DNA of 64,000 bases from an uncultured Clostridium sp. Lineage in GTDB: Bacteria > Bacillota > Clostridia > TANB77 > CAG-465. Location: the NCBI GenBank assembly GCA_964481385.1, contig CAYZTN010000001.1:255-64254 (forward strand), read 5' to 3'. The first letter of the stretch is position 1; the number at the start of each line of letters is the position of its first letter. Shown in pieces: positions 20,663-53,453 of the stretch. The translations under genes were made by a program, and so were the position numbers. The notes beneath the pieces are model-generated. The model was not told the origin of the DNA. It saw only the letters and a list, made by a program, of their open reading frames with translations, and searched no databases.

Positions 20663-20701
20663 TAAATAGTGTCATTTGGGACGTTTTCAAATGACACTAT
20701 T
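20663..20701. repeat. Palindromic intergenic repeat, copy 1 (AAATAGTGTCATTTG-ggacgtttt-CAAATGACACTATTT)
   Basis: Perfect 15-bp inverted repeat around the GGACGTTT core, between convergent genes. Confidence 0.8.
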
Positions 20702-20749
20702 TAATTGTTTCTCAATTAAAAAGCGACCCCAATGGGTCATTTTTTATTT

Positions 20750-21199
20750 TTATTCTTCTTCAGCTTCATCTAATATTTTTATCTGTGCTTCCATCATAGA
20801 TTTTATCTTAATTTTATATATTTGAACTTGTTTTTTTAATTCTTCAAACTCAAGCTCTTTTTCCCTAATCTTTCCTTCATATTCTGCAATTTTGTTTTGG
20901 AAGTTAATCTCCTGACTAGCTTTAAGGTTGCTTGCCTCTTGAAGTGCTACTTCTTTTATTTTGTCTGCTTGCTCTTTAGCGTTAGATATTGTTTGTTCTA
21001 TTCCTTGTTCAAGAGACTTGTAATATCTAACTGATTCCTGCAAATTCTCGCATTTATCGTTTAACTCTGTGTTTTCTTTTGTCATTGCTTCATAATCTAC
21101 AATAAGTTTCTCTAAAAATTCCTCAACGTCTTTTATATCATATCCGCCTATTTTAGCTTTTTTAAACACTTTGTTTTCTATATCTTCTGGTGTTATCAT
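20750..21199 (-). CDS. divIVA: DivIVA-domain cell-division protein
   Basis: N-terminus MITPEDIENKVFKKAKIGGYDIKDVEEFLEKL is the DivIVA signature. Coiled-coil remainder. Confidence 0.85.
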   Translation of the reverse strand: MITPEDIENKVFKKAKIGGYDIKDVEEFLEKLIVDYEAMTKENTELNDKCENLQESVRYYKSLEQGIEQTISNAKEQADKIKEVALQEASNLKASQEINFQNKIAEYEGKIREKELEFEELKKQVQIYKIKIKSMMEAQIKILDEAEEE

Positions 21200-21265
21200 A
21201 TAAATACATCCTCCTTTAAAACATCAAAAGTGGCAATTCTTCCTCACTGCCACTTACTTTCAAAA

Positions 21266-21754
21266 CTATTTCATCCATGTAAATGGAAGTTTATTTCTAT
21301 ACTGCGCTCTTTCTATGTCATTTTGAATTTCTATCGTCTTTGGTGTTATTAAATATATCAAAGATGATATCTTTTGTACACTTCCGTCCAACACAAACGT
21401 TGCACCACTTATAAAGTCAACTATTCTTCTATGATCTTCTTTATTAACTGTCTCAAGATTTACTATCACAGATTTTTTGCTCTTTAAATGTTCACCAATC
21501 TCTTTGACATCGTCAAAACACGCCGGTTGAGTTATCACCATTTTAGAACCAGAAACACTACTACTCATAGGCAGTATCTTAGGCTGTTTTGATACAACCT
21601 CTTCTGATTTATCCATATTTCTACGAGCAAAGTACCCAGCTCTTGTAGGCTTTTCTGGTTCTTCTATAACCTCTTCTGTATCTTCATACTCTTCTTCATA
21701 TTCGTTATCATTTGTGCTCAAACCTAATAGTCCCATGCATTTATCTAATATCAT
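21266..21754 (-). CDS. sepF: Cell-division protein SepF
   Basis: 162 aa. Acidic N-terminus and conserved C-terminal domain SVIVNLETVNKEDHRRIVDFISGATFVLDGSVQKIS. Confidence 0.8.
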   Translation of the reverse strand: MILDKCMGLLGLSTNDNEYEEEYEDTEEVIEEPEKPTRAGYFARRNMDKSEEVVSKQPKILPMSSSVSGSKMVITQPACFDDVKEIGEHLKSKKSVIVNLETVNKEDHRRIVDFISGATFVLDGSVQKISSLIYLITPKTIEIQNDIERAQYRNKLPFTWMK

Positions 21755-21909
21755 GGTCAGTCCTCCTATACTCTCTTACAACGTAATAATACTATATAGT
21801 TATTTCAATTGCAAGAGTTTTTTGCATATTTTGTATATTTTTTAACAAAATTATCTTGAAGCTTTTATATTCTCTTACTTAAGGTTTATCATTATTTTAA
21901 CACTAAACT

Positions 21910-23973
21910 CTATTTTATGTAAAGCGCTGGACGAAAAACATAATAAGCTCTCACTTTATTCGCAGGCTGTTCAAGTCGAGATGATGCAGGAGAGTTCGCA
22001 CCATTTCGTCCTACATCACCACCTCGTATAACACGGTTCTCCGAAGTATATATCTCCATTGTCCACTCCCAGACATTACCAGCTAAATCATATATATTCT
22101 TTGCTTTCCAAGCTTCATTTTTCCCTGTTGTATAATCCATATTTGAACTTCCACTACCAGTAAAAGCAGTTCCTTGTGAATTACTGTAGTTTCCCCAATT
22201 GCGCGAATCTTCTATGCTAGTTTCCGCATCAGATACAAAATTCATTATAGCATCCCACTGTACTCCATAACATAATGTTGATACCACAGATTTATGATTT
22301 TTGTACATATTCTGTGACAAATATACTGCGCCTTTTGTACCTTTTTCTGCCATTGACTCTCCCCAACTAACATAGTTATATACATATACATTCTTTTTGC
22401 TTACTACTGTGTGAGCTTCTGTTTCCCCGGTTCTTGGCTTAGTTGCCGTAGCATCTCCAGCCTCAAAACGTGCTATATAGAACCCTTTATATTTTCTTAC
22501 TGATGCGCACATTTTATTATATTCTTCTATTTCCCATTCACTTGACTCATATGGCTCTTTAAAATTATCATCTAATTTACCCGTCATTTTGTATATCTTA
22601 GAACCACTATAAGTCTCTGTTGCTATTCCTCTTACAAATTTAGTATAATCTTCTACCGGCACCCATACAAACTGGTTACCTATACATATGTCGTCCTCGC
22701 CAACGCCTCTATTTGCATCTTCTTGATTATCTGAAATAACCAACCCTGTACTTTTTAAGCCACCAACATAATAGAAGCCCTCTGGTACCATGCTTGTATT
22801 TATACTTTTTTTACATATTATTTCAATATTACTTGTTACATTATCTATATTGACTATGTCGGTTTCTTTGTTATATGCTGATTTTGTTATATCTAAATTA
22901 TTCATTATGACTGAAACAGACTCAAACACATAATCGTCGCTCAAGTTAAGCTTTGTTTCATAACTTTTTCCGTATTGTATATTCATAGCAACGTTAGAAG
23001 CAGTTGCTCCATCAAGGTCGTATGTTATGCTATACACATTTGCTGTTGCACTAGCTGTAATTATTACATCTCCTGTTACGCTTAATATATTGATCTCTCT
23101 TGTTGCTTCATTGTATACAGTAGCTGTTACATCTACCCCTGCCATTGTTACTTCTACGCTTGTTAACGTGTGACCTATTTTTGCCGTAAGTGTTGTTGTG
23201 TAACTTGTCCCCCATTTTAATGTATATGCTGTATTTGAACTTACTACTTCTGTTAAGCTTGGAGTTATTGTATATGTATTTGCTTCTGTTGTTGCTGTTA
23301 TTATTACATCGTCTGTTACTTTGTCTATTGTTATTGTTTTATTTGAGTCGTTATATGCTAAATCTGTTATATTTACTCCACCCATTACTACTATTACTTT
23401 TTGTAATGTATATCCTGCATCTACGGTTAATGTTGCTGTATATCTTGAATCATTTGCTATTGTTGTGGCCACGTTGTTTGTTGTACAATGAACCAATCTG
23501 TTTCTTATTTTTATCTCATCTGGTATCATTCCTAAACTTTCTATTATTTCTAGTTCACTTTCGTTTTCTGTTATATAAACCAGTTTTCCTTTTATTATTC
23601 TTAATCCTTCTTTATATTTATCTGGCACACTACCAAATATATCTAAATACGCGGCATCCTTGTATGTCATATTAAGCTTCGTTTCATCAAATGCTCTGTC
23701 TTGTAATATTCTGTTCGCTAAATATATGTCGTATATTTGACTGTATGTAGACATATTTAGCTTAAATACTGTCTTTTGAGTTTCACTTATCATATTTGTA
23801 GTACTTAAACTTATTACTACTGTTGTAGCAAGTATACTTAAAACAAGTATTGTTATTACAAGTACTACGATAGTTATTCCGTTTTTTCTATTTACGTTTT
23901 GTGGAACAAATAAATCAAACTTTCTATTGCTTGTGGGAATACTATTTAGAAGGCTTTTTTGCCCCCCCCCCAT
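21910..23973 (-). CDS. Large pilin-like protein: prepilin-type N-terminus + 3 tandem ~75-aa Thr-rich repeats + C-terminal FGE-sulfatase (SUMF1/DUF323) lectin-fold domain
   Basis: N-terminus ...RKNG|ITIVVLVITILVLSILATTVVISL. Repeats (YT..L....GYTL..V.V.M.GV..T...YN...) at aa ~175-400. C-terminus carries GNVWEWT, RVIRGG, YVSWGE, LCYGVQWDAIMNF, the FGE-domain hallmarks. Confidence 0.6.
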   Translation of the reverse strand: MGGGQKSLLNSIPTSNRKFDLFVPQNVNRKNGITIVVLVITILVLSILATTVVISLSTTNMISETQKTVFKLNMSTYSQIYDIYLANRILQDRAFDETKLNMTYKDAAYLDIFGSVPDKYKEGLRIIKGKLVYITENESELEIIESLGMIPDEIKIRNRLVHCTTNNVATTIANDSRYTATLTVDAGYTLQKVIVVMGGVNITDLAYNDSNKTITIDKVTDDVIITATTEANTYTITPSLTEVVSSNTAYTLKWGTSYTTTLTAKIGHTLTSVEVTMAGVDVTATVYNEATREINILSVTGDVIITASATANVYSITYDLDGATASNVAMNIQYGKSYETKLNLSDDYVFESVSVIMNNLDITKSAYNKETDIVNIDNVTSNIEIICKKSINTSMVPEGFYYVGGLKSTGLVISDNQEDANRGVGEDDICIGNQFVWVPVEDYTKFVRGIATETYSGSKIYKMTGKLDDNFKEPYESSEWEIEEYNKMCASVRKYKGFYIARFEAGDATATKPRTGETEAHTVVSKKNVYVYNYVSWGESMAEKGTKGAVYLSQNMYKNHKSVVSTLCYGVQWDAIMNFVSDAETSIEDSRNWGNYSNSQGTAFTGSGSSNMDYTTGKNEAWKAKNIYDLAGNVWEWTMEIYTSENRVIRGGDVGRNGANSPASSRLEQPANKVRAYYVFRPALYIK
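22780..23470 (-). repeat. Three tandem ~225-bp coding repeats inside the FGE-pilin gene
   Basis: Visible in the DNA and in the protein (TYTITPSLTEVVSSNTAYTLKWGTSYTTTLTAKIGHTLTSVEVTMAGVDVTATVYN and its variants). Confidence 0.6.
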
Positions 23974-24037
23974 TTACATATTTTTCCATAAGATGTTATC
24001 ACTCCCCTTTATTTTGCTAGTTTAATACCGAAGTCTA

Positions 24038-24460
24038 TTATCTATGATATATAACTCCATCATATTCTATACCTTTTAAGTAATACACATTGTTTGTATT
24101 TTCACAAATCACAAACACATCGCCATCGTTTACTGTTCCTCTACCTATATCCACAGTTGTATCTAACTTTTTTAAATCTACTACCATAAGCATATTATCA
24201 GTATCACCATTATATGCTAGTTCTGCACTAAAATTAGCATCCAAAGTATTTTTACCAACCACTTCCCCTGTTACAGGTAACGTTTTTTTTGTAGTTATAT
24301 ATTCTAAAGTTAAATCAGAAACTTTATCCACCTTACCTTTAAACGTCTCATAATTTGCTCTAGAAATACTTTTTACCCCAACCACACTTACTGTACTTAT
24401 TACAATAATCATTACGCTTACAACTACAATCAATAATGAAATCGTTATTCCTCTTTTCAT
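24038..24460 (-). CDS. Pilin-like protein (MKRG|ITISLLIVVVSVMIIVISTV)
   Basis: 140 aa. Same KRGIT/KKGIS N-terminal architecture. Directly upstream of the FGE-pilin. Confidence 0.45.
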   Translation of the reverse strand: MKRGITISLLIVVVSVMIIVISTVSVVGVKSISRANYETFKGKVDKVSDLTLEYITTKKTLPVTGEVVGKNTLDANFSAELAYNGDTDNMLMVVDLKKLDTTVDIGRGTVNDGDVFVICENTNNVYYLKGIEYDGVIYHR

Positions 24461-24470
24461 ACTTCCTCCT

Positions 24471-25688
24471 CTATTTTATAACAATGGTATCATATATTTT
24501 TAATTGATACTCTGTAGTTATGTTTTTTTCTTTCAATTCGTCATCACTTAAATTCTCAACAATTGAATTTAATCCATTACTTCTTGTAACTTTTACAGGT
24601 ACTTCTACATTTTTACCATATTTTAATATATTAACATAAGATACATCATTTCTCTCATATACTGCAGCGACTGGTACATATAGTCCAGTGTTTGTCCACC
24701 ACACAATTTCTAATTCTGTATTCCTAAATAAAGCCACTTGCTCTATACCATTTTCAACTTCAAATACTACATCCAAAGTGTTTTTCTCCTTATCTATATA
24801 ATATGAAACAAGCTTTGCTTTTAGTGTGTTTTGACTATCCCCTACCACTCTTAATTTATAGTTTGAGCCAATTTTCAAATACTCTTCATTTATAATTTCC
24901 GTTCTAGAATATATACAACAATAAAAATTATCTATAACTTTTATATTACTCTCAGTTACCTTTTTGCTTGCTAATTCTTTTATTCTATCAAACGTAATAT
25001 TTGTTATATCATTTGCTATAAGGCTTTTTTCTAAACCGTCTGTTGTATACGCAACTATCCCTTGTGCTGTTGCCACAACATTGTCACTAGAATTTTTCAT
25101 GTTCTCTTCGAACTTATTTCTCTCGTTAATAAGTTTTACAATTTCTTGACCAGAAGGACTAAGCTCAGATACTACAATTGCTCTTCTATTTATTAGTTCG
25201 TTTATATCATTTATATGATTTTGCATTTCAACATATGATGTTGTGCCTATCGCACTTTTTAGTTCTGCTCTAATTTGATTTTCAACCGACTCAATTTCAC
25301 TTGAATATACCACTGGTAAATTTTGCATAAGGCTTAATATTTCTGTATCCATCTCTTCTAGTTTTTCCAACTTTTTATCGTACTCAGCGTTTTTATATGT
25401 TGCAATTATTCCACCTTTAGCTGTTTTCTTACCTTCTGCTATGACTGGCACTAAACTTTTTGTGGTATCTCGTTCGATTATAGTTTCGTTTTTTATTATG
25501 TAAGACTCAGCAAGCGAACTAAATTCCAAAGTGCCTTTTTCAACCAAATAAGTTGTTTCACTATTTCTAACTATATTTGTAAATGTAATAATTAAAGCGA
25601 AAAATGCAATTATTACGATTATATACACAAACATCTTGTTCTTTGTACCATCTAAATCTAAATCAAACTTTTTAAGTTTTATTTTCAT
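24471..25688 (-). CDS. HlyD-like membrane-fusion / periplasmic adaptor family protein
   Basis: 405 aa. Short cytoplasmic N-terminus, one TM, a lipoyl-like segment (VPVIAEGKKTAKGGIIATY), a long coiled coil and a C-terminal beta-domain (GLYVPVAAVYERNDVSYVNIL...VEVPVKV). RBS AAAGGAG. No ABC transporter nearby. Confidence 0.45.
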   Translation of the reverse strand: MKIKLKKFDLDLDGTKNKMFVYIIVIIAFFALIITFTNIVRNSETTYLVEKGTLEFSSLAESYIIKNETIIERDTTKSLVPVIAEGKKTAKGGIIATYKNAEYDKKLEKLEEMDTEILSLMQNLPVVYSSEIESVENQIRAELKSAIGTTSYVEMQNHINDINELINRRAIVVSELSPSGQEIVKLINERNKFEENMKNSSDNVVATAQGIVAYTTDGLEKSLIANDITNITFDRIKELASKKVTESNIKVIDNFYCCIYSRTEIINEEYLKIGSNYKLRVVGDSQNTLKAKLVSYYIDKEKNTLDVVFEVENGIEQVALFRNTELEIVWWTNTGLYVPVAAVYERNDVSYVNILKYGKNVEVPVKVTRSNGLNSIVENLSDDELKEKNITTEYQLKIYDTIVIK

Positions 25689-26604
25689 AATACTCCTTTA
25701 TAATTTCAACGAGTTCGCGTTTAGGAAGTGTTCCGTCTACTACGATTTTATTCTCTAGCTTTTTGAACCAAGTAATTTGCCTTTTTGCATAGTGTCTTGT
25801 GTTAACTTTTAATATATCCACACATTCTTCAAGCGTTTTAGTTCCTTTAAAATAATCAAAAAACTCTTTGTATCCTATTGCTTGAGTTGCTGTGAAACTT
25901 TCTTTGCTCTGCATGTTATATAGCATTTTTGCTTCTTCTAGTACACCCTCTTCGACCATTTCGTCTACTCTTTTTTCTATTTTATCATATAACAAACTTC
26001 GTGGCATATCAATATATATTGTAATAAATTCGTAAGGGCTATCCGCTTTTTTCCACAAATTGTTTTCTGAACTATCCAAAGACTTTCCTTGCATTGCTAA
26101 GTACAATGCTCTTTCTACCCTACGTCTATTTTGTTTATCTACCACCTCTGCTCTTTTTATATCCAAACTTTGCAAAAGCAGAAAAAGCTCCTCTGTTGTT
26201 TTGGTCTTGCTAAGTTCATTAAACTTATCTTTTAATTTAGTATCAACTTCGTCAGTTGTAGGAAAGTCAACGTTATTTACCACCGCATTTATGTACAGTC
26301 CTGTACCTCCAACAATTATTGGCACTTTTCCTTTAGCTAGCACTTCTTCTATCTTCTCATAACACGCTTCTTTATATGTTTTTGCGTCATACTTTTCAGA
26401 AATGTCACAAATATCTATCATGTAGTGAGGTGTTCGTTTCATTTCTTCTTTTGTTGCTTTAGCAGTTCCTATATCAAGCTTTCTATATATCTGCATTGAA
26501 TCTGCAGATATAATAGCACCATTTAAAACATCTGCTACAGCCAGTCCTAAGCTACTTTTTCCAGAAGCTGTCGGCCCTATAATTACAATTACTTTCTTTT
26601 TCAT
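25672..26604 (-). CDS. miaA: tRNA dimethylallyltransferase
   Basis: 310 aa. P-loop IIGPTASGKS, and DSMQIY. Confidence 0.9.
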   Translation of the reverse strand: MKKKVIVIIGPTASGKSSLGLAVADVLNGAIISADSMQIYRKLDIGTAKATKEEMKRTPHYMIDICDISEKYDAKTYKEACYEKIEEVLAKGKVPIIVGGTGLYINAVVNNVDFPTTDEVDTKLKDKFNELSKTKTTEELFLLLQSLDIKRAEVVDKQNRRRVERALYLAMQGKSLDSSENNLWKKADSPYEFITIYIDMPRSLLYDKIEKRVDEMVEEGVLEEAKMLYNMQSKESFTATQAIGYKEFFDYFKGTKTLEECVDILKVNTRHYAKRQITWFKKLENKIVVDGTLPKRELVEIIKEYYENKT

Positions 26605-29447: not shown

Positions 29448-29462
29448 AGTTTTCTCCTATAA

Positions 29463-37698: not shown

Positions 37699-37818
37699 TT
37701 GGTTTCATTAGTGTCATGCTGTCATTGGGGACGTTTCTCTTTGACACTGCATATATAATTTTAAGGTTTGTGTCAAAGAGAAACGTCCCCAATGACAGCA
37801 TGACACTAATGAAACCAA
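37699..37818. repeat. Palindromic repeat, copy 2 (120 bp, ~49-bp perfect arms containing GTCATTGGGGACGTTTC)
   Basis: TTGGTTTCATTAGTGTCATGCTGTCATTGGGGACGTTTCTCTTTGACAC ... exact reverse complement. Sits in the divergent prfA / GT2 intergenic region. Confidence 0.85.
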
Positions 37819-37831: not shown

Positions 37832-38920
37832 ATGATTTCGCTTAGCGTTTGTATGATAGTCAAAAATGAAGAAAAAGTTCTCGAACGATGTCTTACCTGC
37901 ATTAAAAAAACTGCTGATGAAATAGTTATTGTAGATACTGGTTCAACTGATAAAACTAAAGAAATTGCTAAAAAATTCACAGATAAAATATACGATTTTG
38001 AATGGATAGACGATTTCTCTGCTGCCAGAAACTATTCGTTTTCAAAAGCTACAAAAGAATATATTATGTGGCTTGACGCCGATGATGTTATACTAGAAAA
38101 AGACCAACAAAAGTTACTTGAACTAAAAGAAACTTTAGATGGAAATATAGACATGGTGCTTTTAAAGTATAACACAGGATTTGACGAAAATGGCAACGTC
38201 ACTTTCTCATACTACAGAGAACGTATTTTAAAAAAAGCTGTAGGTTACACATGGCTTAGTCCAATACACGAAGTTATACCCATTTCAGGGAACACGCTAT
38301 ACAGTGACATTTGTATAACCCATAAAAAGTGTGGTGTATCTAACCCTAAACGAAACCTAGAAATATTTGATAACATGTTAAAAAAAGGAATTAAACTAGA
38401 CCCTAGGCAACAATTTTATTACGCTCGTGAACTTTATTATACCAAAAGGTACACTGAAGCTATAACTAACTTTAATGCTGTTCTAGACAATGAACAAGCG
38501 TGGATTGAAAATAAAATAAACGCATGTCTAGATTTATATAACTGCTATATTGCTTTAAACGATAAAACAAATGCATTTCTTGCGCTTACTCATAGTTTTA
38601 TATATGACTTACCTAGAGCCGAAATATGCTGTGAGCTTGGAAGTTTTTTCATGGATAACAACAAATATGATCTAGCTTCACATTGGTATAAACAAGCTTT
38701 AAACTGTAAACTAGACACAACTCGCGGTGGTTTTTATATGCTTGACTGCTATAAATATATACCATATATAGAGCTTTGTGTATGCAGTTTTAGGTTAGGA
38801 GATATTTCTCAAGCAATTAAATATAACGAACTGGCAGGAGTTGAAAAGCCTACTAGCAAAGAATACCTATATAACAAGGAGTTTTTTGAAAAACAAAATA
38901 CACAAAACAAATCAAATTAA
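37832..38920 (+). CDS. Family-2 glycosyltransferase with C-terminal TPR-like repeats
   Basis: 362 aa. N-terminus ISLSVCMIVKNEEKVLERCL...DEIVIVDTGSTDKT...WLDADDV is GT-A/GT2. The helical repeat C-terminus resembles spore-surface glycosyltransferases. Confidence 0.8.
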   Translation: MISLSVCMIVKNEEKVLERCLTCIKKTADEIVIVDTGSTDKTKEIAKKFTDKIYDFEWIDDFSAARNYSFSKATKEYIMWLDADDVILEKDQQKLLELKETLDGNIDMVLLKYNTGFDENGNVTFSYYRERILKKAVGYTWLSPIHEVIPISGNTLYSDICITHKKCGVSNPKRNLEIFDNMLKKGIKLDPRQQFYYARELYYTKRYTEAITNFNAVLDNEQAWIENKINACLDLYNCYIALNDKTNAFLALTHSFIYDLPRAEICCELGSFFMDNNKYDLASHWYKQALNCKLDTTRGGFYMLDCYKYIPYIELCVCSFRLGDISQAIKYNELAGVEKPTSKEYLYNKEFFEKQNTQNKSN

Positions 38921-38989
38921 CATTAAATAAACACTTTGCATAAAATATATAGAATTAAGTTTTAAACATATATATATAAGGAGGCGTTT

Positions 38990-40054
38990 ATGAATAATTG
39001 TTTTAACCCTTGCTGTCCACCTAAACCATGTGTATTAGTTGGGCCTCAAGGTATTCAAGGTTGCCAAGGCATTCCCGGACCTATAGGTCCTACTGGCCCA
39101 CAAGGTGTTCAAGGTATTCAAGGAATGCAAGGACCATGCGGACCAACAGGTGCAACAGGTGCTACTGGAATAACCGGTCCAACAGGAGCTACTGGAGCTA
39201 CTGGACCAACTGGAGAAACTGAAACCATAACTATCGCAAATACTGTTACAGGCGAGCCCGGTACAGAAGCAGCAGTAAACGAAAGAAAAGTAGGAAATGA
39301 ACACATATTGGAATTTGTAATACCACGTGGAACTGACGGAACTAGTGTGCAAATATTAGGCAGCTACCCTAGTTTACAAGAATTAGAAGAAAACGAGCCA
39401 ATTGGCCAAAAAGGAGACGCATATATAATAGATAAAGACTTATACGTATGGTCAGATAACGACAACAGATGGGTTAATGCAGGCGAAATAAAAGGACCTC
39501 AAGGAGAACCTGGAGAAAAGGGAGACCAAGGAGAACAGGGCATTCCTGGGCCTACACTAATTAGAAATGCATATCTTCTAACCTACAATGACGGGACATC
39601 TGAAGATGGAGTTCCTGTACCTACAAAAACTAAACTACCTATTGACAGAACCGAAATTAATATAGGAAATATTATAACATTAGATCCAAACGAAGAAACA
39701 GTTAAGTTTAATCTTATTGGACATTACAAAGTAACTTTTGTAGTCTCAGCTTATTCACAAAAGACAGATACAGATTTTGTGCCAGAAAAAGACTTTGTAT
39801 CGCTTGGTTTTAGGCAAGTAGGCACAGATAATATATATATTGGAGCAAGTAGTTGGAATTATGACGAAATTGCTATACAAGTAACTGGTCAAGGAATATT
39901 AGCAATTAATGATACTTCTCAGCTATATGAATTAGTAAATCTAGGACCAGAAACTATATATCTGCATTCACCAGATTTAAAGTATATTGATTCTAATTCT
40001 TACTTTACTAATCCACTTGTAAATATTTTAATTGAATATTTAGGTAGAGAATAA
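38990..40054 (+). CDS. Collagen-like (G-X-Y) triple-helix repeat protein, BclA-like exosporium/surface glycoprotein candidate
   Basis: 354 aa. Cys-rich N-terminus [14 protein letters not shown], about 25 GXY triplets ([14 protein letters not shown]...[13 protein letters not shown]), an interruption, more GXY ([20 protein letters not shown]), and a ~170-aa beta-rich C-terminal domain. Locally GC-rich. Confidence 0.85.
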
Positions 40055-40062
40055 TAATTAAC

Positions 40063-40212
40063 CAGTGTCATTAGAAACGTCCGGGACTGCTGAAAAAGTG
40101 AATTTATGGTAAACTTAAAATCTAAAAACCATTGATTTAAATGTTTGAATTTTTTAAAATATCGATTTTTTCAGTGCTCCCGAAACGTCCTAAATGACAC
40201 TGATTAATTATT
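40063..40212. repeat. Palindromic repeat, copy 3 (composite: CAGTGTCATTAGAAACGTCC... / ...GAAACGTCCTAAATGACACTGATTAATTA with ~70-bp insert)
   Basis: Outer arms CAGTGTCATT/AATGACACTG; inner arms GGGACTGCTGAAAAA / TTTTTCAGTGCTCCC. Same terminal CACTGATTAATTA as copy 5. Confidence 0.7.
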
Positions 40213-41218: not shown

Positions 41219-41768
41219 TTATTTTTCCGGCATATTAACCGTTATTTTTATTTTTTCTGCATACTCAACACTCACTATTTTTCCATTATTTTTTTGTATT
41301 TCTCTTAAAGTGTCTTTTTCTTTATCGTAATCTACAGTAATTTCTTTTTTAACATATTTTACATATTCTTCTTTTATACATTTTTGGACAGCATCTGTTG
41401 AAACGCCAAGATATGCTCGTGTAAGTGGACCAGTTCCAAGCAATACTCCACCAAAATATCTTACAACTATTATTAATGTATTTACCAAGTTTTCTTTTTC
41501 CAGCATTGCATATATGGGTTTTCCTGCTGTACCTGATGGCTCTTTATCGTCTGTGAATCTTCCGTGTATTCTCTAATTTATATGCATAAACAATATGTTT
41601 CGCTTCTTTATTTGAAACCCTAATATTATCTAATATTTTATATATTTGCTCCACATTTTGCACATTGTACACATAAGCTATAAACTTTGACTTGTTTATA
41701 ACCATTTCGCTTTTTGAGAGTAACACCTCATATTCACCTTTTAATGAGTATTTTTTATCCATATACAC
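41219..41768 (-). pseudogene. yigZ: YigZ/IMPACT-family (UPF0029) protein, frameshifted
   Basis: ORFs 41544-41768 and 41219-41506. The second frame reads upstream as FTDDKEPSGTAGKPIYAMLEKE...VVRYFGGVLLGTGPLTRAY, the conserved YigZ core. A single-base frame change lies within 41515-41545. Confidence 0.65.
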
Positions 41769-44340: not shown

Positions 44341-44440
44341 AAGTGTGAGGTTGCTATGTTGCTGTGTTGCAGTGTCATTGGGGACGTTTCTAAATGACAC
44401 TGCAACACTACGACACTACGACACCATGACACTCACACTT
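44341..44440. repeat. Palindromic repeat, copy 4 (100-bp imperfect palindrome with perfect core GCAGTGTCATTGGGGACGTTTCTAAATGACACTGC)
   Basis: Outer ends AAGTGTGAG / CTCACACTT are exact reverse complements. Core at 44369-44403. Confidence 0.8.
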
Positions 44441-45381
44441 CAAATGTTGTTTCGTCTATAAATCTGTAATTTGTTTTATATTTTAATTCTCTTACAAGTC
44501 TAAATAACGCGTCATCTTTTGCTTTTACTTCAAGCATTATGTCCAATCTACTAAAAAAAGGTTTTACATCTTCTAGAAATGCTATAAACGCATTCGAATC
44601 TATGTATTCACTGTGACTTCTAATTTCTTTTTTTAACTTGCTCTTCGGACTTGAAAAATGCACTTTAGGTGTCTTGCCGATTCCAAGTAGCAAATATTCT
44701 CTCGTAGTACTTATCTATACATATTCCATCACTTGCACCGTTACATATATGGTGGTGATAATCTAATACCATCGGTCTTTTTATGCTTTCACAAAGTTCT
44801 AACGTATCTTTTGCATTAAATATTTTGTCATCGTTTTCTATAACTATGCATTCTCTAATATATTCTGGCAACTGATTAAAGTTATTTTTAAACCTTGCTA
44901 TTGAGTTTTCTTTTCCAAATGTACTACTTCCAACATGAACAACTAATACTTTTTCTTGGAGCTCTAAAGCCTCAAAAAGAATATAATGATAATTTAAAAT
45001 TGCAAGCGAACTTTCAAAAACGTCTTTTTTGGTTGAGTTTATTACACAAAACTCATCTGGGTGAAAGTCCACTCTCATTTTACTTTTCTTTATCTTATCT
45101 CCAATACTTAAATACTTACCTTTAAAACACGTAACATAGTCCATGTCTACGTCTTTCTTTGTTGCAAGCGGTATTAAACTCGAGGTTATTCTAAAAAAGT
45201 GAATATTGTTTTTAACGTTATATTCTAAAATATTTTCTAAAGCTTCAAGATTTTTAGATATAACCGAATTTAGTTTTTCTTTTCTATTTTCATTTTTTAA
45301 ATAATTTGTATAACTCACTGTATGTGAACATGTATCGTTTAAAGCTTTACTTATACACGCATAACCTAATCTTACTATCAT
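44433..45381 (-). pseudogene. uvsE: UV-damage endonuclease UvsE (UVDE), frameshifted
   Basis: ORF 44665-45381 carries RLGYACIS...VHVGSS...IENDD...LDYHHH, the UvsE core. ORF 44433-44693 carries the C-terminus (GKTPKVHFSSPKS). The frame change is within 44690-44700 (tggaatcgg). Confidence 0.7.
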
Positions 45382-45509: not shown

Positions 45510-45800
45510 CTAAATATTCTCATAATGCGTCCACATACTTAATATTTGTACTATATGTTCCTCTTCTTTTACTTTATATACTAATCTATGCTGTATATTT
45601 ATTCTTCGTGAATATATGCCTTTTAAATCACCTATTAATTTTTCATAAGGCGGTGGCGTCTTGAACGGATCTAACCTTAACATTTCTATTAACCTTTTAG
45701 TTTTAGTATCTAATTTAGATTCTTTAAGCTTTTGAATATCTTTTAGAGCTTTCTTGTTATATGCAATTTTATACAATTTACCATTCCACCTCTTCTTCAC
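45510..45800 (-). CDS. yoeB: YoeB/Txe-family type II toxin (mRNA interferase)
   Basis: 96 aa. DPFKTPPPYEKLIGDLKGIYSRRINIQHRLVYKV...ILSMWTHY is the YoeB signature. Confidence 0.85.
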   Translation of the reverse strand: MKKRWNGKLYKIAYNKKALKDIQKLKESKLDTKTKRLIEMLRLDPFKTPPPYEKLIGDLKGIYSRRINIQHRLVYKVKEEEHIVQILSMWTHYENI

Positions 45801-46026
45801 TTACGAAGTCCTCATCTAAATCATTAGCCCTTTCAATAATTTCGTCTTTTAGATTTGGTACAGACATGATATATAACGTCTCCATTAAGCTGTTATAATC
45901 CTCTTCAGACAACACTACAGCATTTCCATTCTTTGTTGATATACTTATTGGCTCATTAAAATTTATGGTTTGTTCTAGCAAAGAATATATATCTTTTCTA
46001 AAATTAGTAACATTTACAGTTGTCAC
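45778..46026 (-). CDS. yefM: YefM/Phd-family antitoxin
   Basis: 82 aa. VTNFRKDIYSLLEQ...ISTKNGNAVVLSEEDYNSLMETLYI. Overlaps yoeB by 23 nt. Confidence 0.8.
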   Translation of the reverse strand: MTTVNVTNFRKDIYSLLEQTINFNEPISISTKNGNAVVLSEEDYNSLMETLYIMSVPNLKDEIIERANDLDEDFVSEEEVEW

Positions 46027-46118: not shown

Positions 46119-46156
46119 CAAAAAAGAGAAAATCATCTTCACAATTTTCCCTTTTA
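46119..46156. repeat. Direct repeat B flanking the yefM-yoeB cassette
   Basis: GCAAAAAAGAGAAAATCATCTTCACAATTTTCCCTTTT. Confidence 0.85.
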
Positions 46157-46178
46157 TATATTTTAACCATATATTTGT

Positions 46179-46349
46179 TTATTCTTCGCTTGGTGCTCCT
46201 ACTGGGCAAACAGATGCACAAGTACCACAATCAATACATTTTTCTGGATCTATTACAAATCTGTCGTCTCCGGCACTAATTGCTCCTACTGGGCATTCTG
46301 CTGCACACGCTCCACATGATATACATTCTTCAGATATTCTATATGCCAT
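46179..46349 (-). CDS. 2x[4Fe-4S] ferredoxin (56 aa)
   Basis: Hand translation gives MAYRISEECISCGACAAECPVGAISAGDDRFVIDPEKCIDCGTCASVCPVGAPSEE. Two CxxCxxCxxxCP motifs. RBS GGAAAGAGGTG. Absent from the ORF track because it is under 60 aa. Confidence 0.7.
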   Translation of the reverse strand: MAYRISEECISCGACAAECPVGAISAGDDRFVIDPEKCIDCGTCASVCPVGAPSEE

Positions 46350-48019: not shown

Positions 48020-48020
48020 G

Positions 48021-48647
48021 TTATATTTCTCCTATTTTATTTAATGGCCAAACTCTAATACCTACTATTCCTTCAACTCTTTCTAGTGGTACTACTCCAA
48101 ACTCTCTGCTATCTCTGCTTGCTGCTCTATTATCTCCCATTACAAAAACACAGCCCTCAGGCACTTCTAGTGAGTAATATGCTCCTGTAATTGGTGTTAC
48201 AGTACCCTCTGGTAAATATGTTTCCTCTAGCACTTCGCCGTTTAGTAAAACAGCTCCTTCTTCTGTAATTTCTATAGTATCTCCGCCTACAGCGATTACT
48301 CTTTTTATATAGCTTTTTTTACCAAATTCTAGCACGTTATATGCAAAGTAACTAAAACCATGACGCTCAATATATCCAGCTTTTACATTACCGTCCGTAT
48401 TATCTGTATAGTCTGGTGCTGTAATAGTTACAATCTGGCCTCTTTTTACTTCGTGGTTATATAACACACGTCTACCCACCAAAACTCTTTCACCTTCTTT
48501 GGCTGTAGGAAACATGGAAGTTTGCTTAATTCCAGCAATTGTTCCAAGAAAATAATTTATACAAACATATATTACGTATGCTATTACAAAGCAAACTACC
48601 CATTCAAATATCTCATTTACCACTTTATTCTTAAATAATTGTTTCAA
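48021..48647 (-). CDS. lepB: Signal peptidase I
   Basis: 208 aa. N-terminal TM, SMFPT (Ser box), GDNRAASRDSREFG (box E). Confidence 0.85.
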   Translation of the reverse strand: MKQLFKNKVVNEIFEWVVCFVIAYVIYVCINYFLGTIAGIKQTSMFPTAKEGERVLVGRRVLYNHEVKRGQIVTITAPDYTDNTDGNVKAGYIERHGFSYFAYNVLEFGKKSYIKRVIAVGGDTIEITEEGAVLLNGEVLEETYLPEGTVTPITGAYYSLEVPEGCVFVMGDNRAASRDSREFGVVPLERVEGIVGIRVWPLNKIGEI

Positions 48648-48664
48648 GTTTTCTCCTCTTTTCT

Positions 48665-50599
48665 TTAGTGTATGCTTTCACCAAGTGGAACCGCATCATC
48701 TACAAACAATACTTTCACCGTATCTCCATCGCCTGCAGCAAGAAGCATTCCATTTGACTCTATTCCTCTTAATTTTGCAGGTTTTAAATTGCTTACTAGT
48801 GCTACTTTTTTACCCACTAATTCTTCTTCTTTATAATATGGAACAAGTCCAGATACAACGGTACGTTTCTCATATCCTAAATCCACCTCAAGTTTATACA
48901 ACTTCTTAGCGTCAGGAATACGTTCTACAGATAGTATCTTAGCTACTTTAAGTTTTACTTTATCCACATCGTCTATTGTAATTTCTTCGTCTTTTTCAAC
49001 ATTTTCCACTTTTGTTTGCTCCTCTTCTTTCACATTTTTTGAAGCAAGTTCCTCTAATTTTTTTGCAGCGTCTATTCTTGCAAATAACACTTCTGCAGTT
49101 CCAACTTTTGTACCGGCTTTCATTTTGCCAAATGAATTAATACTTTCGATATCTGCACTTTCTGCGTTTATTTGTTTAATAATCTTTTCTGCAGTTTCTG
49201 GCATAATGCATTTTAACATTACAGCTATTATTCTTATTGCCTCAATTAAATTGTATAACACAGTTTTTAAAGTTTCTTTACCTTCTTCAGTCTTTGCAAG
49301 TACCCAAGGTGCTGTTTCGTCAATATATTTATTGCTACGTCTTGCAGCTATCATTATTTGTTCAATAGCTTCTGCTACATGTATATTTTCCATTTTTTCA
49401 ATATACGTTTTTGCAGCGTCAGTAACACACGCTTTTAAATCTTTGTCTATGTCGCTTTCTGCTCTTGGCATGAAAAGCTCACCGTCAAAATATTTATTTA
49501 CCATTGTTACTGTTCTGTTTACAAGGTTGCCTAATGTATTTGCAAGGTCTGTATTGTATTTTTCAATTACACCTTCATAAGTAATGTTTCCGTCTTGTGC
49601 ATAAGGCATTTCAGACAAGCAAAAATATCTTACTGCGTCTACGCCAAATTCCTCTGCTAGTTCGTCAGCATATATAACATTACCTTTAGATTTGCTCATT
49701 TTGTCACTGCCAAATAACATCCAACCATGTGCATATATCTTTTTAGGGAGTGGTTCACCTAGTGCCATCAAAATTATTGGCCAATATATAGCGTGAAATC
49801 TTAAAATATCTTTTCCTATTACATGTAAATCTGCTGGCCAGTTTTTATTATATAATTCTGACTTGTTATCGCACTCGTAACCTAAAGCAGTTATATAGTT
49901 AGTTAAAGCGTCTATCCATACATAAACTACATGGCCTGGGTTAAAATCTACTGGTATTCCCCAAGTAAAAGATGTTCTAGATACACATAAATCTTGAAGT
50001 CCTGCTTTTAAGAAGTTGTTCATTATCTCTTTTTTTCTAGATTCAGGCTCAATAAAACCTGGATGAGACTCAATGTATTCAATTAGTCTATCTTGGTATT
50101 TGCTACATTTTAAGAAATATGCTTCTTCTTTAGCTTTTTTTACTTCACGACCACAATCTGGACATTTTCCATCAACTAATTGTGTATCTGTAAAGAAAGA
50201 TTCACATGGTGTACAGTAATTTCCTTCATATTCTCCAAGATAAATATCTCCTTGCTCATATAGCTTTTTAAATATTTTTTGAACTGTTTTTTCGTGGTAA
50301 TCGTCAGTTGTACGGATAAACTTATCAAAAGTTGTATTCATACCTTTCCATATCTTTTTAACTTCTCCTGCTACTCCGTCAACATATTCTTTTGGAGATA
50401 TGCCAGACTTTTCAGCTATTTCTTGTATTTTTTGACCATGCTCATCTGTTCCAGTTAAAAAGTAAACGTCTTTTCCCATTAAGCTATTAAATCTTGCAAT
50501 TGCGTCTGTTAATATAATCTCATAAGTATTACCAATATGCGGTTTTCTTGATGTATATGCGATTGCTGTTGTTATATAAAACTTCTCTTTTTCGTTCAT
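48665..50599 (-). CDS. metG: Methionine--tRNA ligase (with C-terminal tRNA-binding domain)
   Basis: 644 aa. HIGNTYE (HIGH), KMSKSKGN, zinc knuckle CPDCG, C-terminal EMAP-like domain. Confidence 0.95.
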   Translation of the reverse strand: MNEKEKFYITTAIAYTSRKPHIGNTYEIILTDAIARFNSLMGKDVYFLTGTDEHGQKIQEIAEKSGISPKEYVDGVAGEVKKIWKGMNTTFDKFIRTTDDYHEKTVQKIFKKLYEQGDIYLGEYEGNYCTPCESFFTDTQLVDGKCPDCGREVKKAKEEAYFLKCSKYQDRLIEYIESHPGFIEPESRKKEIMNNFLKAGLQDLCVSRTSFTWGIPVDFNPGHVVYVWIDALTNYITALGYECDNKSELYNKNWPADLHVIGKDILRFHAIYWPIILMALGEPLPKKIYAHGWMLFGSDKMSKSKGNVIYADELAEEFGVDAVRYFCLSEMPYAQDGNITYEGVIEKYNTDLANTLGNLVNRTVTMVNKYFDGELFMPRAESDIDKDLKACVTDAAKTYIEKMENIHVAEAIEQIMIAARRSNKYIDETAPWVLAKTEEGKETLKTVLYNLIEAIRIIAVMLKCIMPETAEKIIKQINAESADIESINSFGKMKAGTKVGTAEVLFARIDAAKKLEELASKNVKEEEQTKVENVEKDEEITIDDVDKVKLKVAKILSVERIPDAKKLYKLEVDLGYEKRTVVSGLVPYYKEEELVGKKVALVSNLKPAKLRGIESNGMLLAAGDGDTVKVLFVDDAVPLGESIH

Positions 50600-50635
50600 T
50601 TTGTTCCTCCGATTTTTCCAATTTTCCTAGATATA

Positions 50636-50664
50636 ATTATATGACACAAGTAGCCGTTTGTCAA
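50636..50664 (-). promoter_or_regulatory. Consensus sigma-A promoter of metG (TTGACA-17-TATAAT)
   Basis: Read on the minus strand. Perfect hexamers at 17-nt spacing. The leader is only ~35 nt, so there is no T-box. Confidence 0.6.
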
Positions 50665-50751
50665 CGAAAACAAAGAACTCAATTTTAATATTGTGGGTTG
50701 TTATTTTTTTAAAACTGTAATATACTATGTATTGTATAAGGAAGTGAAAAA

Positions 50752-52167
50752 ATGAACACAAAATTAGAAAAATTTAAAAATACAATAAAGGGTAAAAAAG
50801 TAGGAGTAATAGGAATTGGGATTAGCAATATTCCAGCAATAAAATATTTAGCAAGTATGGGAGCTAAAGTTACTGCATTAGACAAAAGAGAAGCTTTAGA
50901 TATACCCACAGAAGATTTAGAAAATTTAGGTGTGCAGTTTGTACTTGGCGAAAGCTATTTATCTAATTTAAACGGTTTTGATTATATACTTCGTTCACCT
51001 GGTGTAAAACCTTTCACACCAGAATTAGAAAAAGCAGTAAACAGCGGAGTTAAACTTACATCAGAAATTGAACTTTTAATGGAACTTGCACCATGTAAAA
51101 TAATCGGAGTTACTGGGAGCGACGGAAAAACTACAACTACCACTTTAATTTCAATGTTTTTAAAGGAGGCTGGCTTTAATGTATGGCTTGGTGGAAATAT
51201 TGGTACACCATTATTTAGCAAGTTAGATGAAATGAAAGATACGGATATTGTAGTTTTGGAACTAAGCAGTTTTCAACTTATGACTGCTAAGCAAAGTCCA
51301 GATATTTCTGTTGTTACAAATATATCTCCTAACCACCTAGACTACCATAGAAGTTATGACGAATATATTGAGGCTAAAGAAAATATATTTTTACACGAAA
51401 GTAATAATACTGTAGTGTTTAACGCAGACGATGGTATGACAGAAAAGTTTTTGAAAGACATTGAAAAAAATGAGATTAGTAAAAGTGTTAAATATTTTAG
51501 CCTAAATAAAATGGAAAAAATAGGGTGTTTTTTCAAAGATGGTTTTATATACTACAATAACGGTAAAACAGTAGAAACAATAGAAAGTAAAGAAAACATT
51601 AGGTTAGTCGGAATGCATAACATCGCTAATATATGTGCGGCAGCTTCTGCAGTAATAGACCTTACAGGAATTGAAGCCATAGTACGTGTTATAACTACAT
51701 TTAACGGTGTAAAACACCGAATGCAACATATTGCTACAATAAACGGTGTAAAATGGTACAATGATTCAATTGGAACGAGCCCTTCAAGAACAATGGCTGG
51801 TTTAAACTCTTTTGATAAAAAAATAATACTTATTGCTGGTGGATATGACAAACACATTCCATACGATGTTTTAGGTGAACCTATTTTAAATAAAGTAAAA
51901 CACTTGGTTTTACTTGGTGCAACCGCTCCTAAAATTGAAAACGCAGTAATAGATGCAGCGGAGAAACTCAACAAAAATCACACTGATTTTTTAACAATTA
52001 CAAATTGTAATTCACTAGAAGAATGTGTTAATTATTGCAATTCAATTGCGAGTAGTGGCGATATAGTTGTAATGTCTCCGGCTTCTGCTTCTTTTGATAT
52101 GTACAAAAACTTTGAACAAAGAGGAGAACACTTCTACAGATTAGTAGATAACTTAAAAGACGCGTAA
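50752..52167 (+). CDS. murD: UDP-N-acetylmuramoylalanine--D-glutamate ligase
   Basis: 471 aa. GVTGSDGKTTTT ATP-binding motif; Mur ligase domain organisation. Confidence 0.9.
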   Translation: MNTKLEKFKNTIKGKKVGVIGIGISNIPAIKYLASMGAKVTALDKREALDIPTEDLENLGVQFVLGESYLSNLNGFDYILRSPGVKPFTPELEKAVNSGVKLTSEIELLMELAPCKIIGVTGSDGKTTTTTLISMFLKEAGFNVWLGGNIGTPLFSKLDEMKDTDIVVLELSSFQLMTAKQSPDISVVTNISPNHLDYHRSYDEYIEAKENIFLHESNNTVVFNADDGMTEKFLKDIEKNEISKSVKYFSLNKMEKIGCFFKDGFIYYNNGKTVETIESKENIRLVGMHNIANICAAASAVIDLTGIEAIVRVITTFNGVKHRMQHIATINGVKWYNDSIGTSPSRTMAGLNSFDKKIILIAGGYDKHIPYDVLGEPILNKVKHLVLLGATAPKIENAVIDAAEKLNKNHTDFLTITNCNSLEECVNYCNSIASSGDIVVMSPASASFDMYKNFEQRGEHFYRLVDNLKDA

Positions 52168-52178
52168 TGCGTCTTTTT

Positions 52179-52508
52179 TCATTCTGTAAAATTATCTCTA
52201 AATTCTTTAACCATTTTCTTTAATACAGCTAGTTGTTTATCTGTTAAATACACATCTGCAACTTCGCTGGCTGGTATAGTTAAAGAATCCGCAAACATAG
52301 TATCTAAACTCATATTTAAAACATTTGCAAGTCTTATTGCAGTTGTTACGCTTGGAGCTTTTACTCCTCTTTCAATATCTCCTAGGAAATTTTGAGATAC
52401 CCCTATTTCTTCAGCTAATGCATATTGAGTCATATCTTTACTAAGTCGACCCGCTCTTACCCTTTTACCCAACATGTTTAAATTCAAATATTTTGACATT
52501 ATTTTCAC
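52179..52508 (-). CDS. XRE-family helix-turn-helix transcriptional regulator
   Basis: 109 aa. LSKDMTQYALAEEIGVSQNFLGDIERG is an HTH_3 motif. Confidence 0.7.
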   Translation of the reverse strand: MKIMSKYLNLNMLGKRVRAGRLSKDMTQYALAEEIGVSQNFLGDIERGVKAPSVTTAIRLANVLNMSLDTMFADSLTIPASEVADVYLTDKQLAVLKKMVKEFRDNFTE

Positions 52509-52578
52509 CTCAGGTAAAATATATAGTAATAGCGTTTAAAACTGAACAAACCTTAAGTTTTAATATAAACACTTGGTG

Positions 52579-52971
52579 TTAAGTTTTTATAGAAACTACT
52601 GCATTTGCCACAGCAACTTTCTCTATGTGAGATATACTAACGTCTATAATGATAGTTTTTTCCTGTTGCGCCAAATCTAGTTTTGTGTTATTTAAAATTA
52701 CATACGGCCTATTTAAGCATGTGTTATCATTTAAAATTTCTATATCCCCTAACCAAATTGTGTCTCCATACTTTGCTGATAACGCTTTATACACGGCCTC
52801 TTTTGCTGCAAACCTTCCGGCATAATACTGGTATTTTATGCTTTCCGACTTTTTTTCCCCTACCTCAATTTCTTTCTCTGTAAATACTTTTTCTTTAAAG
52901 CCAACTGTATCTTGTATGGCTTTCTTTACTCTTTCGACTTCAATTATATCTGTTCCACAAAACTGTAACAT
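52579..52971 (-). CDS. acpS: Holo-[acyl-carrier-protein] synthase
   Basis: MLQFCGTDIIEVERV... with RBS GGGGAGAG directly upstream of the internal ATG. The ORF-track start at 53007 has no RBS. Confidence 0.85.
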   Translation of the reverse strand: MLQFCGTDIIEVERVKKAIQDTVGFKEKVFTEKEIEVGEKKSESIKYQYYAGRFAAKEAVYKALSAKYGDTIWLGDIEILNDNTCLNRPYVILNNTKLDLAQQEKTIIIDVSISHIEKVAVANAVVSIKT

Positions 52972-53050
52972 ACTCTCCCCCAAAAACTTACACATAAATT
53001 TTAACACAAGTATTGCTTTTTTTCAAATTATGTATTATAATAATTGTGTT

Positions 53051-53126
53051 ACGGGGCGTAGCTCAGTTGGTAGAGCGCGTGGTTTGGGACCATGAGGTCG
53101 CAGGTTCGGGTCCTGTCGCTCCGACC
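53051..53126 (+). tRNA. tRNA-Pro (anticodon TGG)
   Basis: Hand-folded cloverleaf. Acceptor CGGGGCG/CGCTCCG, D-arm GCTC-AGTTGGTA-GAGC, anticodon stem CGTGG/CCATG with loop TTTGGGA, T-arm GCAGG-TTCGGGT-CCTGT, discriminator A, encoded CCA. 76 nt. Confidence 0.85.
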
Positions 53127-53412
53127 ATATTAACGAAAAATTCTAAGTTTTGTTACTTAGAATTTTTTTATGCTTTCTTTTTTAATAAACTTCCATCGGA
53201 TTTTTTATTTACTCCTATAAAGCTTGTTTCACTCACATTCACTAAAATGTCCTTTATGTCTGATAGTTGTTACCTCTGTCCCTTAAATTGGTCAAAACCG
53301 TCCATGACCATTTAGTCACTTAGTTTATCTTTCTTCAATTGATTTGCTATATATTCATTTGATTTCTTGGTATTCTTGCTAGCTCCACAGACTATCTAGT
53401 TATTTGTACAAT

Positions 53413-53453
53413 CAGTGTCATTTGAAAACGTCCCAAATGGCACTGATTAATTA
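53413..53453. repeat. Palindromic repeat, copy 5 (CAGTGTCATTTG-aaaacgtccc-AAATGGCACTG + ATTAATTA), inverted orientation
   Basis: The loop is the reverse complement of GGGACGTTTT. It abuts the polC stop codon. Confidence 0.8.

Follow-up and report, generated by a model that had tools for sequence, protein, structure and literature searches.

An intergenic hairpin family in a Clostridium chromosome with the likely traits of RAYT-associated repeats

Introduction

Repetitive extragenic palindromes (REPs), their REPIN doublets and the RAYT transposases that accompany them are well described, and have been studied almost entirely in Proteobacteria. The closest described relatives of the repeats reported here are those of the TIRYT genes, which are flanked by inverted repeats with GGGGWSAS, some of them moderately abundant and found as dimers and clusters (Di Nocera et al, 2013; PMC3733652). 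TIRYTs constitute subclass 2.1 of TnpA-Y1 and possess a C-terminal helix-turn-helix; REP-like structures were not found with them (Quentin et al, 2018; PMC6006769). Group 1 RAYTs occur in Clostridia, and the 16-mers flanking them are modestly repeated (Bertels et al, 2017; PMC5581495). A further group, the CGTC-REPs, is known from Proteobacteria, Chlorobi, Bacteroidetes, Spirochaetes, and Thermotogae, with Firmicutes and Actinobacteria unlisted, and no dedicated transposase was found for it (Di Nocera et al, 2013; PMC3733652). The subject of this work is a family of intergenic hairpins at five loci (copies 1 to 5) in a 64-kb stretch of DNA from an uncultured Clostridium sp. (assembly GCA_964481385.1, contig CAYZTN010000001.1, positions 255 to 64,254). 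This stretch, here called the window and numbered from its first letter, is ~32% G+C core chromosome of a spore-forming Firmicute. Its five loci likely represent a REP/REPIN-like family of RAYT/TIRYT-associated repeats, on which a transposase encoded beyond the window would act in trans.

A REP family in Clostridia or other Gram-positive anaerobes was not described in the literature searched, where the core strings of the family were met only in primer sequences. The kind of system is nevertheless already known, and no new kind is revealed here. What appears not to have been spelled out in that literature is the position of the motif at the tip of a covarying hairpin, with GGGGACGGTTCT as its commonest form and GGGGACGTTTCT as a variant, and the spread of such hairpins in Clostridia, Lachnospiraceae, and probably Collinsella.

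Results and Discussion

The hairpin family of the window

The five copies constitute a non-chance, strictly intergenic hairpin family. The original prediction had placed palindromes with a shared core at five positions, and both positions and core were confirmed in the sequence of all five. The repeated unit, AGTGTCATT-(N)GGGACGTTT(C/T)-AAATGACACT, is ~30 nt long; its minimal form reads AGTGTCATT-(T/G)G-GGACGTTT(C/T)-(N)-AAATGACACT. A stem of 8–19 bp (AGTGTCATT / AATGACACT), lengthened by outer arms of the TAATTAAW type, closes an apical segment, the near-invariant GGGACGTTT(C/T), which is the window's version of GGGGACG(G/T)TTCT. With up to three mismatches, GTGTCATTNGGGACGTTT matched the window six times, compared with 0.09 matches expected from shuffles; GGGACGTTT matched five times (0.13 expected) and GGACGTTT nine times (0.67 expected), seven of these in the five loci and two, probably by chance, inside polC. 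Folded as single strands, the loci reached −14.6 to −59.9 kcal/mol (z −5.2 to −19 versus dinucleotide shuffles).

All five loci lie in the non-coding ~9% of the window, the remaining 91% being open reading frames (ORFs) on a crude gene map, which agrees with the earlier claim that every copy is intergenic; by our own arithmetic, random positions would yield five of five with p ~6e-6. A covariance model derived from units of many genomes and run on the window with filters off retrieved five intact units (E 4e-9 to 4e-5) and no other significant match. The core is on the + strand at copies 1 and 4, on the − strand at copies 3 and 5, and on both in copy 2, independent of transcription and of the replication direction inferred from GC skew. 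The conserved block is apical (GGGACGTTT), the tetranucleotide GTAG is absent beside all five stems, CGTC lies inside the apical segment of 9–13 nt at the five loci, and a CCA tail is absent.

Association with a RAYT-type transposase in other genomes

The same signature flanks a transposase gene in other genomes. In Butyrivibrio sp. NC2007 (locus L063), a 246-amino acid ORF matching Pfam Y1_Tnp (E 2e-12) is bracketed by inverted hairpin arrays, with three hairpins directly after the stop codon and three more, in opposite orientation, ~150 bp upstream. The protein contains the motifs NHVHLL and RYILQNP and ends in a helix-turn-helix–like tail with weak HTH_28/HTH_23 matches (HTH_28 E 0.007). 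In other Firmicutes and on metagenomic contigs, the flanked gene is of this type as well, that is, a single-copy HUH/Y1 gene with NHxHLL and YIxxNP motifs and a C-terminal helix-turn-helix. The L063 protein matches NCBIfam REP_Tyr_transpos at E 2e-14 versus E 0.005 for transpos_IS200, and scores 54 bits against NCBIfam RAYT, below the curated cut-off of 80; by these profile matches, the flanked protein is RAYT-like, not IS200-like. At E <= 1e-30, the protein family comprises 699 clusters (50% identity) with Butyrivibrio, Lachnospiraceae, Ruminiclostridium, Flexilinea, Anaerolineaceae, and Desulfotomaculum, and also "RayT", among the source names. For protein P0001, no sequence relative was found in the PDB at E 0.01.

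The arrangement recurs at four further homologue loci, with GGGGACGGTTCT in Butyrivibrio proteoclasticus and on two AT-rich/metagenomic contigs, and with the loop variant GGGACAGGCAC at one of the four; a fifth homologue locus has the core alone, without a clear hairpin. Inverted copies flanking the Y1 gene are present at L063, L114, L119, and L121. An assessment independent of the motif was based on 64 full-length homologue loci from JGI metagenomes, picked by protein profile alone. The core was present on the coding strand within 350 bp upstream in 34 of the 64 and, inverted, within 250 bp downstream in 37, compared with opposite orientations in only 6 and 7; on both sides and in the expected orientation it was present in 30. 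Among 89 transposase-flanking cores, 62% were located in a perfect hairpin of at least 5 bp, versus 7% at control positions. The window's core variant GGGACGTT was encountered at L145, L151, L156, and L160, where it reads GGGACGTTTC, as in the window, in L145, L151, and L160; L160 also carries an inverted doublet built like copy 2.

The AT-rich homologues were considered as candidates for this genome's own RAYT and set aside, their hairpins being related but different. The same tRNA-Leu(aag) gene directly precedes the upstream hairpin(s) and the RAYT-like gene in two species of Butyrivibrio (L063 6560–6783 and L114 2699–2850); this common neighbor fits vertical, single-copy inheritance. On an ENA contig (L116 1–2739), two group II intron reverse-transcriptase genes (RVT_1 plus GIIM) stand directly upstream of a RAYT homologue.

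Conserved tips and covarying stems

Among the matches listed, GGGGACG(G/T)TTCT occupies hairpin tips also in Butyrivibrio/Lachnospiraceae, Collinsella, and metagenomic contigs, on stems that differ between the groups: TGAGTCA, TGAGACA, and GGGTCA in Butyrivibrio/Lachnospiraceae, and CTAGTCATT, TGCCGGCACTT, and GGCAGA in Collinsella. The scan of genome contigs used a 15-base pattern that was unspecific, and its listed matches were mostly due to chance. Over all loci collected, GGACG[GT]T was enclosed in a perfect hairpin of at least 6 bp in 117 of 408 cases (29%), compared with 1.8% for forty permuted 7-mers. When 44 distinct units were aligned, all nine of nine outer stem pairs changed on both sides, with 158 double-change cells versus 56 ± 5 after column shuffles and 17–43 when partners were slid. 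As these units had been chosen for having a stem, independent evidence comes not from the percentage of paired positions but from the variety of compensated stems. Pairing of the inner GGGGA...TTCT(C), with CGK as triloop, is possible solely via G.T/G.U pairs, and because this part is nearly invariant, covariation is no test of its pairing. Tandem arrays and doublets are present in Butyrivibrio, Collinsella, and L160.

Between pckA and a 563-amino acid ORF of Collinsella (L004 2565–2720), at least four hairpins with the GGGACGTT core are clustered. They belong to two stem families, CTAGTCATT and TGCCGGCACTT, and the cluster occupies the same place in ~40 Collinsella species representatives, a stability that is unusual for a selfish repeat. 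Scanning IMG/VR with the hairpin pattern returned no match, and neither did scanning JGI metagenomes with the window-specific full unit. When the window and 14 related loci were compared with Rfam 15, only tRNA reached the gathering threshold, and at relaxed E-value only generic miRNA-precursor hairpin models appeared; an identity with the Collinsella-1 motif was dropped, having no Rfam support at either threshold.

An empty allele of copy 1

Copy 1 was recently gained or lost between near-identical strains. On the two sides of copy 1, a Logan contig from SRR14160761 (L203/L207) matches the window over 1986 nt (100% identity) and 1474 nt (99.9%), but lacks 54 bp, which comprise the palindrome of copy 1 with its 7-nt tail and one AATTAAA of the two. 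The missing segment can be placed at 20660–20713 or, equivalently, at 20667–20720. Because an empty junction in a k-mer assembly needs spanning reads, the allele is considered real. On contigs from SRR14160763 and SRR20681284, the same site is filled. The AATTAAA repeat fits Y1-type excision or insertion beside a mimic of the element end, a target-site duplication, or a deletion by slippage that the palindrome stimulated.

Around copies 2, 3, and 4, only filled sites, or contigs breaking within the palindromes, were encountered. Proteins identical to those of the window were met on short Logan metagenome contigs only, which tend to end inside palindromes; the hairpin repeats offer an explanation for the breaks of short-read contigs at these loci. 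Exact-protein records were not found for the polC and ACPS gene products.

Comparison with described repeat systems

Judged by domain architecture, the family would correspond to the repeats associated with TIRYTs/TIRtrons, that is, with TnpA-Y1 subclass 2.1 and probably with Group 1 RAYTs. In both cases, a RAYT-like Y1 transposase with an extra C-terminal helix-turn-helix (here, that of proteins from other genomes) is flanked by inverted repeats with a GGGG-rich motif—published as GGGGWSAS, here GGGGACGK—and in both the repeats reach moderate numbers in some genomes, occurring singly, as dimers, or in clusters. The window's (G)GGGACGT matches GGGGWSAS at 6/8 positions, its core GGGGACGT departing at positions 7–8; the homologue loci carry GGGGACGG in their majority and, in some cases, GGGGACAG, which fits. 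The published repeats are described as long terminal inverted repeats, not stem-loops, whereas those reported here are short covarying hairpins with an apical motif. As the inverted flanking of a Y1 gene with a C-terminal helix-turn-helix was met in other genomes only, TIRYT-associated membership is supported through those genomes and would extend to the present one by analogy.

With the classical REP/BIME and REPIN-RAYT systems of Enterobacteria and Pseudomonas, the family shares short extragenic palindromes that often follow genes, their occurrence as singlets and inverted doublets (copy 2), and a flanked single-copy HUH/Y1 gene in related genomes. It differs in that no GTAG stands 5′ of the stem, the conserved part is apical, and the stems are AT-rich and long; the transposase, at 54 bits, remains below the 80-bit NCBIfam RAYT cut-off and has the additional helix-turn-helix. 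CGTC-REPs are similarly short, palindromic, and extragenic, and CGTC is contained in the core (reverse complement AACGTCCC), but they have it as a terminal head on a stem of 8–9 bp with a loop of 4–5 nt and a CCA tail, whereas here it is in the loop. The subterminal hairpins of IS200/IS605 elements (IS608, ISDra2) would resemble the family in being recognized on one strand by a Y1 HUH transposase, and their insertion and excision without true target duplication beside an end-like sequence is compatible with the AATTAAA of copy 1. However, those hairpins mark the ends of an element that carries its transposase, whereas the present ones are dispersed alone and linked to a RAYT-like enzyme family. 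RUP, BOX, bcr1, and EFAR are likewise small, foldable intergenic repeats of Firmicutes; they differ in measuring 100–300 bp and in being bounded by defined terminal inverted repeats or built of modular boxes, and their sequences showed no likeness to the family, no tool having been used for the comparison.

Alternative explanations

That the hairpins act mainly as RNA—stabilizers of 3′ untranslated regions, processing sites or terminators, with the GGGGACGUUUCU tip as the site of an RNA-binding protein—is quite improbable. Copies 1, 3, and 5 do closely follow genes, their GGGACGUUU strand running in the same sense as the gene before it, and on the sense strand alone the core lengthens the stem by G.U pairs (GGGGA / UUCU(C), CGK triloop). 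However, orientation toward transcription is inconsistent, as two Butyrivibrio arrays and copy 4 run antisense to the genes beside them and copies 2 and 3 are present in both orientations or split, and copy 1 is dispensable in a near-identical strain. Terminator function in particular is unlikely because copy 1 alone loosely matches the terminator pattern, and does so beside a canonical bidirectional terminator. Copies 2–5 are neither followed by a U-tract nor terminator-like, and canonical terminators adjoin copies 1 and 3. Rfam contributes no family, only generic miRNA-hairpin matches, and an RNA role leaves the oriented association with a DNA transposase gene unexplained.

Conventional miniature inverted-repeat transposable elements (MITEs), that is, deletion derivatives of DDE-type insertion sequences (ISs) that are mobilized through terminal inverted repeats and make target-site duplications, would account for the 7-bp AATTAAA bounding copy 1, the 16-nt terminal inverted repeats and 9-bp direct repeat of the insert in copy 3, and the long perfect inverted arms of copy 2. 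Comparable direct repeats could, however, not be read from the sequence at copies 2, 4, and 5; the units measure only 30–50 bp and have no internal region; and conservation resides in the center (the loop) rather than at the termini, the outer arms varying among copies. Moreover, no transposase of any type, and no IS, was found among 30 window proteins scanned against Pfam, and the signature is tied to Y1, not DDE, transposase genes, so that a MITE origin is unlikely. Immobile, vertically conserved binding sites for a host DNA-binding protein (an operator, nucleoid, or replication factor) are an even fainter prospect, to which we give hardly any credence. The layout, with 9-bp arms and a 9–13-bp spacer, resembles the palindromic CIRCE operator, and the Collinsella cluster has stayed at one locus in ~40 species; yet, opposite to the pattern of an operator, it is the spacer that is conserved and the arms that vary, with compensation; most copies follow stop codons or separate convergent genes instead of occupying promoters, and copy 1 is polymorphic for presence and absence. 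CIRCE or any other operator was dropped for the same variation of the arms. Also dropped were attC sites, which have their conserved boxes at the stem base; type III antitoxin repeats, as the copies are dispersed and a toxin gene is absent; rolling-circle or relaxase nick sites, the associated gene being absent; and parS or dif sites.

Proposed mode of action

The original prediction of a REP/MITE-like palindrome family is upheld by the non-chance intergenic hairpins, the RAYT-flanking signature, and the presence/absence of one copy. Of its two terms, REP/REPIN-like is the one supported over classical MITE, given units of 30–50 bp, the lack of a parent IS, and no DDE-type terminal-inverted-repeat logic. 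Its suggestion that the copies serve as recombination hot spots or rearrangement breakpoints is speculation. Most likely, the hairpins do not constitute a regulatory signal but a family of very small DNA elements that are, or were until recently, mobile. By analogy with the genomes in which a transposase gene is flanked, a cognate RAYT-type enzyme would be encoded elsewhere in this genome and would recognize the folded single strand via the apical motif. Like IS200/IS605 and RAYT enzymes, it might nick and rejoin DNA beside the hairpin, resulting, at a low rate, in duplication, in pairing (copy 2), and in excision (the empty allele of copy 1). Copies would persist where insertion is tolerated, mainly after stop codons and between convergent genes.

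Several points weigh against the involvement of such an enzyme. No Y1/RAYT gene or remnant was found in the window by tblastn or profile search, the best six-frame fragment reaching 12.7 bits in a shadow frame, which is not credible; a RAYT was not found in the Collinsella loci examined either, and about half of the 64 homologous transposase loci have no recognizable core in their flanks. The five loci of the window are all the copies known, and the classical REP tag GTAG is absent from them. The 54-bp difference with its 7-bp direct repeat could reflect a slippage deletion or a target-site duplication and not Y1-type excision. Finally, we know of no RAYT of any class that has been experimentally shown to transpose REPs.

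A wider proposal, toward which we lean slightly less than away from, is that of a REP superfamily crossing phyla, made up of hairpins with a GGGGACG(G/T)TTCT cap and extending over Clostridia, Lachnospiraceae, probably Collinsella, and contigs with transposases named Ruminiclostridium, Flexilinea/Anaerolineaceae, and Desulfotomaculum. It would be served by the very large helix-turn-helix subclass of RAYTs for which published surveys noted no REP-like structures, and these enzymes would read an apical loop motif instead of a 5′ GTAG guide. If true, domesticated Y1 transposases would have a second recognition geometry, and it would be explained why REP-type repeats in Gram-positive gut anaerobes went unnoticed. 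Irrespective of this proposal, the window adds a hairpin family with a clear signature, tied by the survey of related genomes to the helix-turn-helix RAYT subclass, and a natural empty-site allele is at hand. The search model can be used to annotate such repeats in Firmicute and Actinobacterial genomes, and the units provide defined oligonucleotide substrates for probing what domesticated transposases do.

The individual copies and their surroundings

Copy 1 (20660–20713, + strand; unit 20669–20697) is a 47-bp perfect-stem hairpin (20660–20706) followed by the 7-nt tail GTTTCTC. By inverted-repeat search, its arms (20660–20678 and 20688–20706) are 19 nt long and 100% complementary. It directly follows the stop codon of a 151-amino acid gene and precedes a bidirectional terminator (20724–20739); the direct repeat AATTAAA is located at 20660–20666 and 20714–20720. 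Like copy 5, it is a single unit with long outer arms, which read AATTAAATAGTG, those of copies 3 and 5 reading TAATTAATCAGTG; they are copy-specific but related, and the stem of copy 1 is still perfect because the differences occur on both arms. The tail is identical to the 3′ half of the family core, and right arm, tail, and AATTAAA together form a second small hairpin at 20699–20720, TTTAATTG-TTTCT-CAATTAAA, which may be left over from a second unit or may be a trace of how insertion took place.

Copy 2 (37699–37818, both strands) consists of two units head to head, 37719–37747 (+) and 37770–37798 (−). It had been announced as a 120-bp element with perfect arms of ~49 bp, and its arms (37699–37747 and 37770–37818) are indeed 49 nt long and 100% complementary around a 22-nt center, resulting in a REPIN-like doublet. 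It occupies the gap between the divergent prfA and glycosyltransferase genes, ending 31 nt upstream of a good promoter-like site of prfA. In its left arm, an ORF of 19 codons with a TTG start (37699–37758), preceded by GAAGGAGGG, is probably fortuitous.

Copy 3 (40053–40212, − strand) is not the 150-bp palindrome that had been reported but a single unit, its arms being TAATTAA(C/T)CAGTGTCATT, which an insert of 99 bp (40083–40181) splits. The arms (40053–40072 and 40193–40212; 20 nt, 95% complementary) are 120 nt apart, and the + strand reads AGTGTCATT-A-GAAACGTCC-[99 bp]-GAAACGTCC-TA-AATGACACT, the insert being flanked by the direct 9-bp repeat GAAACGTCC at 40074–40082 and 40182–40190. The insert has 16-nt terminal inverted repeats of its own, GGGACTGCTGAAAAAG / GGGAGCACTGAAAAAA, and a promoter-like TTGATT-17-TAAAAT at 40132–40160. 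A second copy of it was not found in the window; it may be a small element of a second kind, with the hairpin loop as its target. Copy 3 is situated past the terminator of spo0A and, as had been stated for copies 1, 3, and 5 and is borne out by the gene map, between convergent genes.

Copy 4 (44341–44440, + strand) contains its unit at 44372–44400, a perfect 16-bp stem inside a longer imperfect palindrome; the arms at 44357–44379 and 44393–44415 are 23 nt long and 87% complementary. The arms consist of tandem 8-nt repeats (GTTGCTAT, GTTGCTGT, GTTGCAGT, GTCGTAGT, and GTCATGGT), as does, to a lesser extent, copy 2 at 37713–37728; the unequal numbers of repeats on the two arms suggest stepwise slippage of the AGTGTCAT arm. 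Copy 4 is positioned between the co-directional genes for a methionine gamma-lyase–like protein and a truncated uvdE.

Copy 5 (53402–53458, − strand; unit 53415–53443) is a palindrome longer than originally given, with GGGACGTTT on the − strand and the stop codon of polC (53451–53453) inside its outer arm. It has CACTGATTAATTA in common with copy 3, and its convergent partner is tRNA-Pro. Between the tRNA-Pro terminator and copy 5 extends a stretch of 280 bp without an ORF (53130–53410), in which no similarity to RAYT proteins was found. It includes a weak candidate unit on the − strand (53289–53310, TGGTCA-TGGACGGTTT-TGACCA), not significant in the covariance search (E = 2.6), that carries the core variant GGACGGTT, the commonest form in other genomes.

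The genes of the window include valS, sepF, divIVA, mutS, prfA, spo0A, metG, holB, polC, and rseP, and one for a BclA-like collagen-repeat protein. The latter follows a gene for a family-2 glycosyltransferase with TPR repeats (37832–40054), and the pair resembles a module for an exosporium glycoprotein that has been inserted between prfA and spo0A, with copies 2 and 3 at its edges. A yigZ-type gene (UPF0029 plus DUF1949; 41219–41768) is divided into two ORFs of 74 and 95 amino acids; the split recurs on L110 and L111, which are independent contigs from metagenomes, and so does not stem from a sequencing error in the window. The uvdE gene (44433–45381) appears truncated or frameshifted: a 238-amino acid ORF covers profile positions 1–239 of 275, and an 86-amino acid ORF, whose end is abutted by copy 4, follows in another frame. 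Beside uvdE, in otherwise housekeeping surroundings, a YefM/YoeB type II toxin–antitoxin pair is encoded at 45510–46026.

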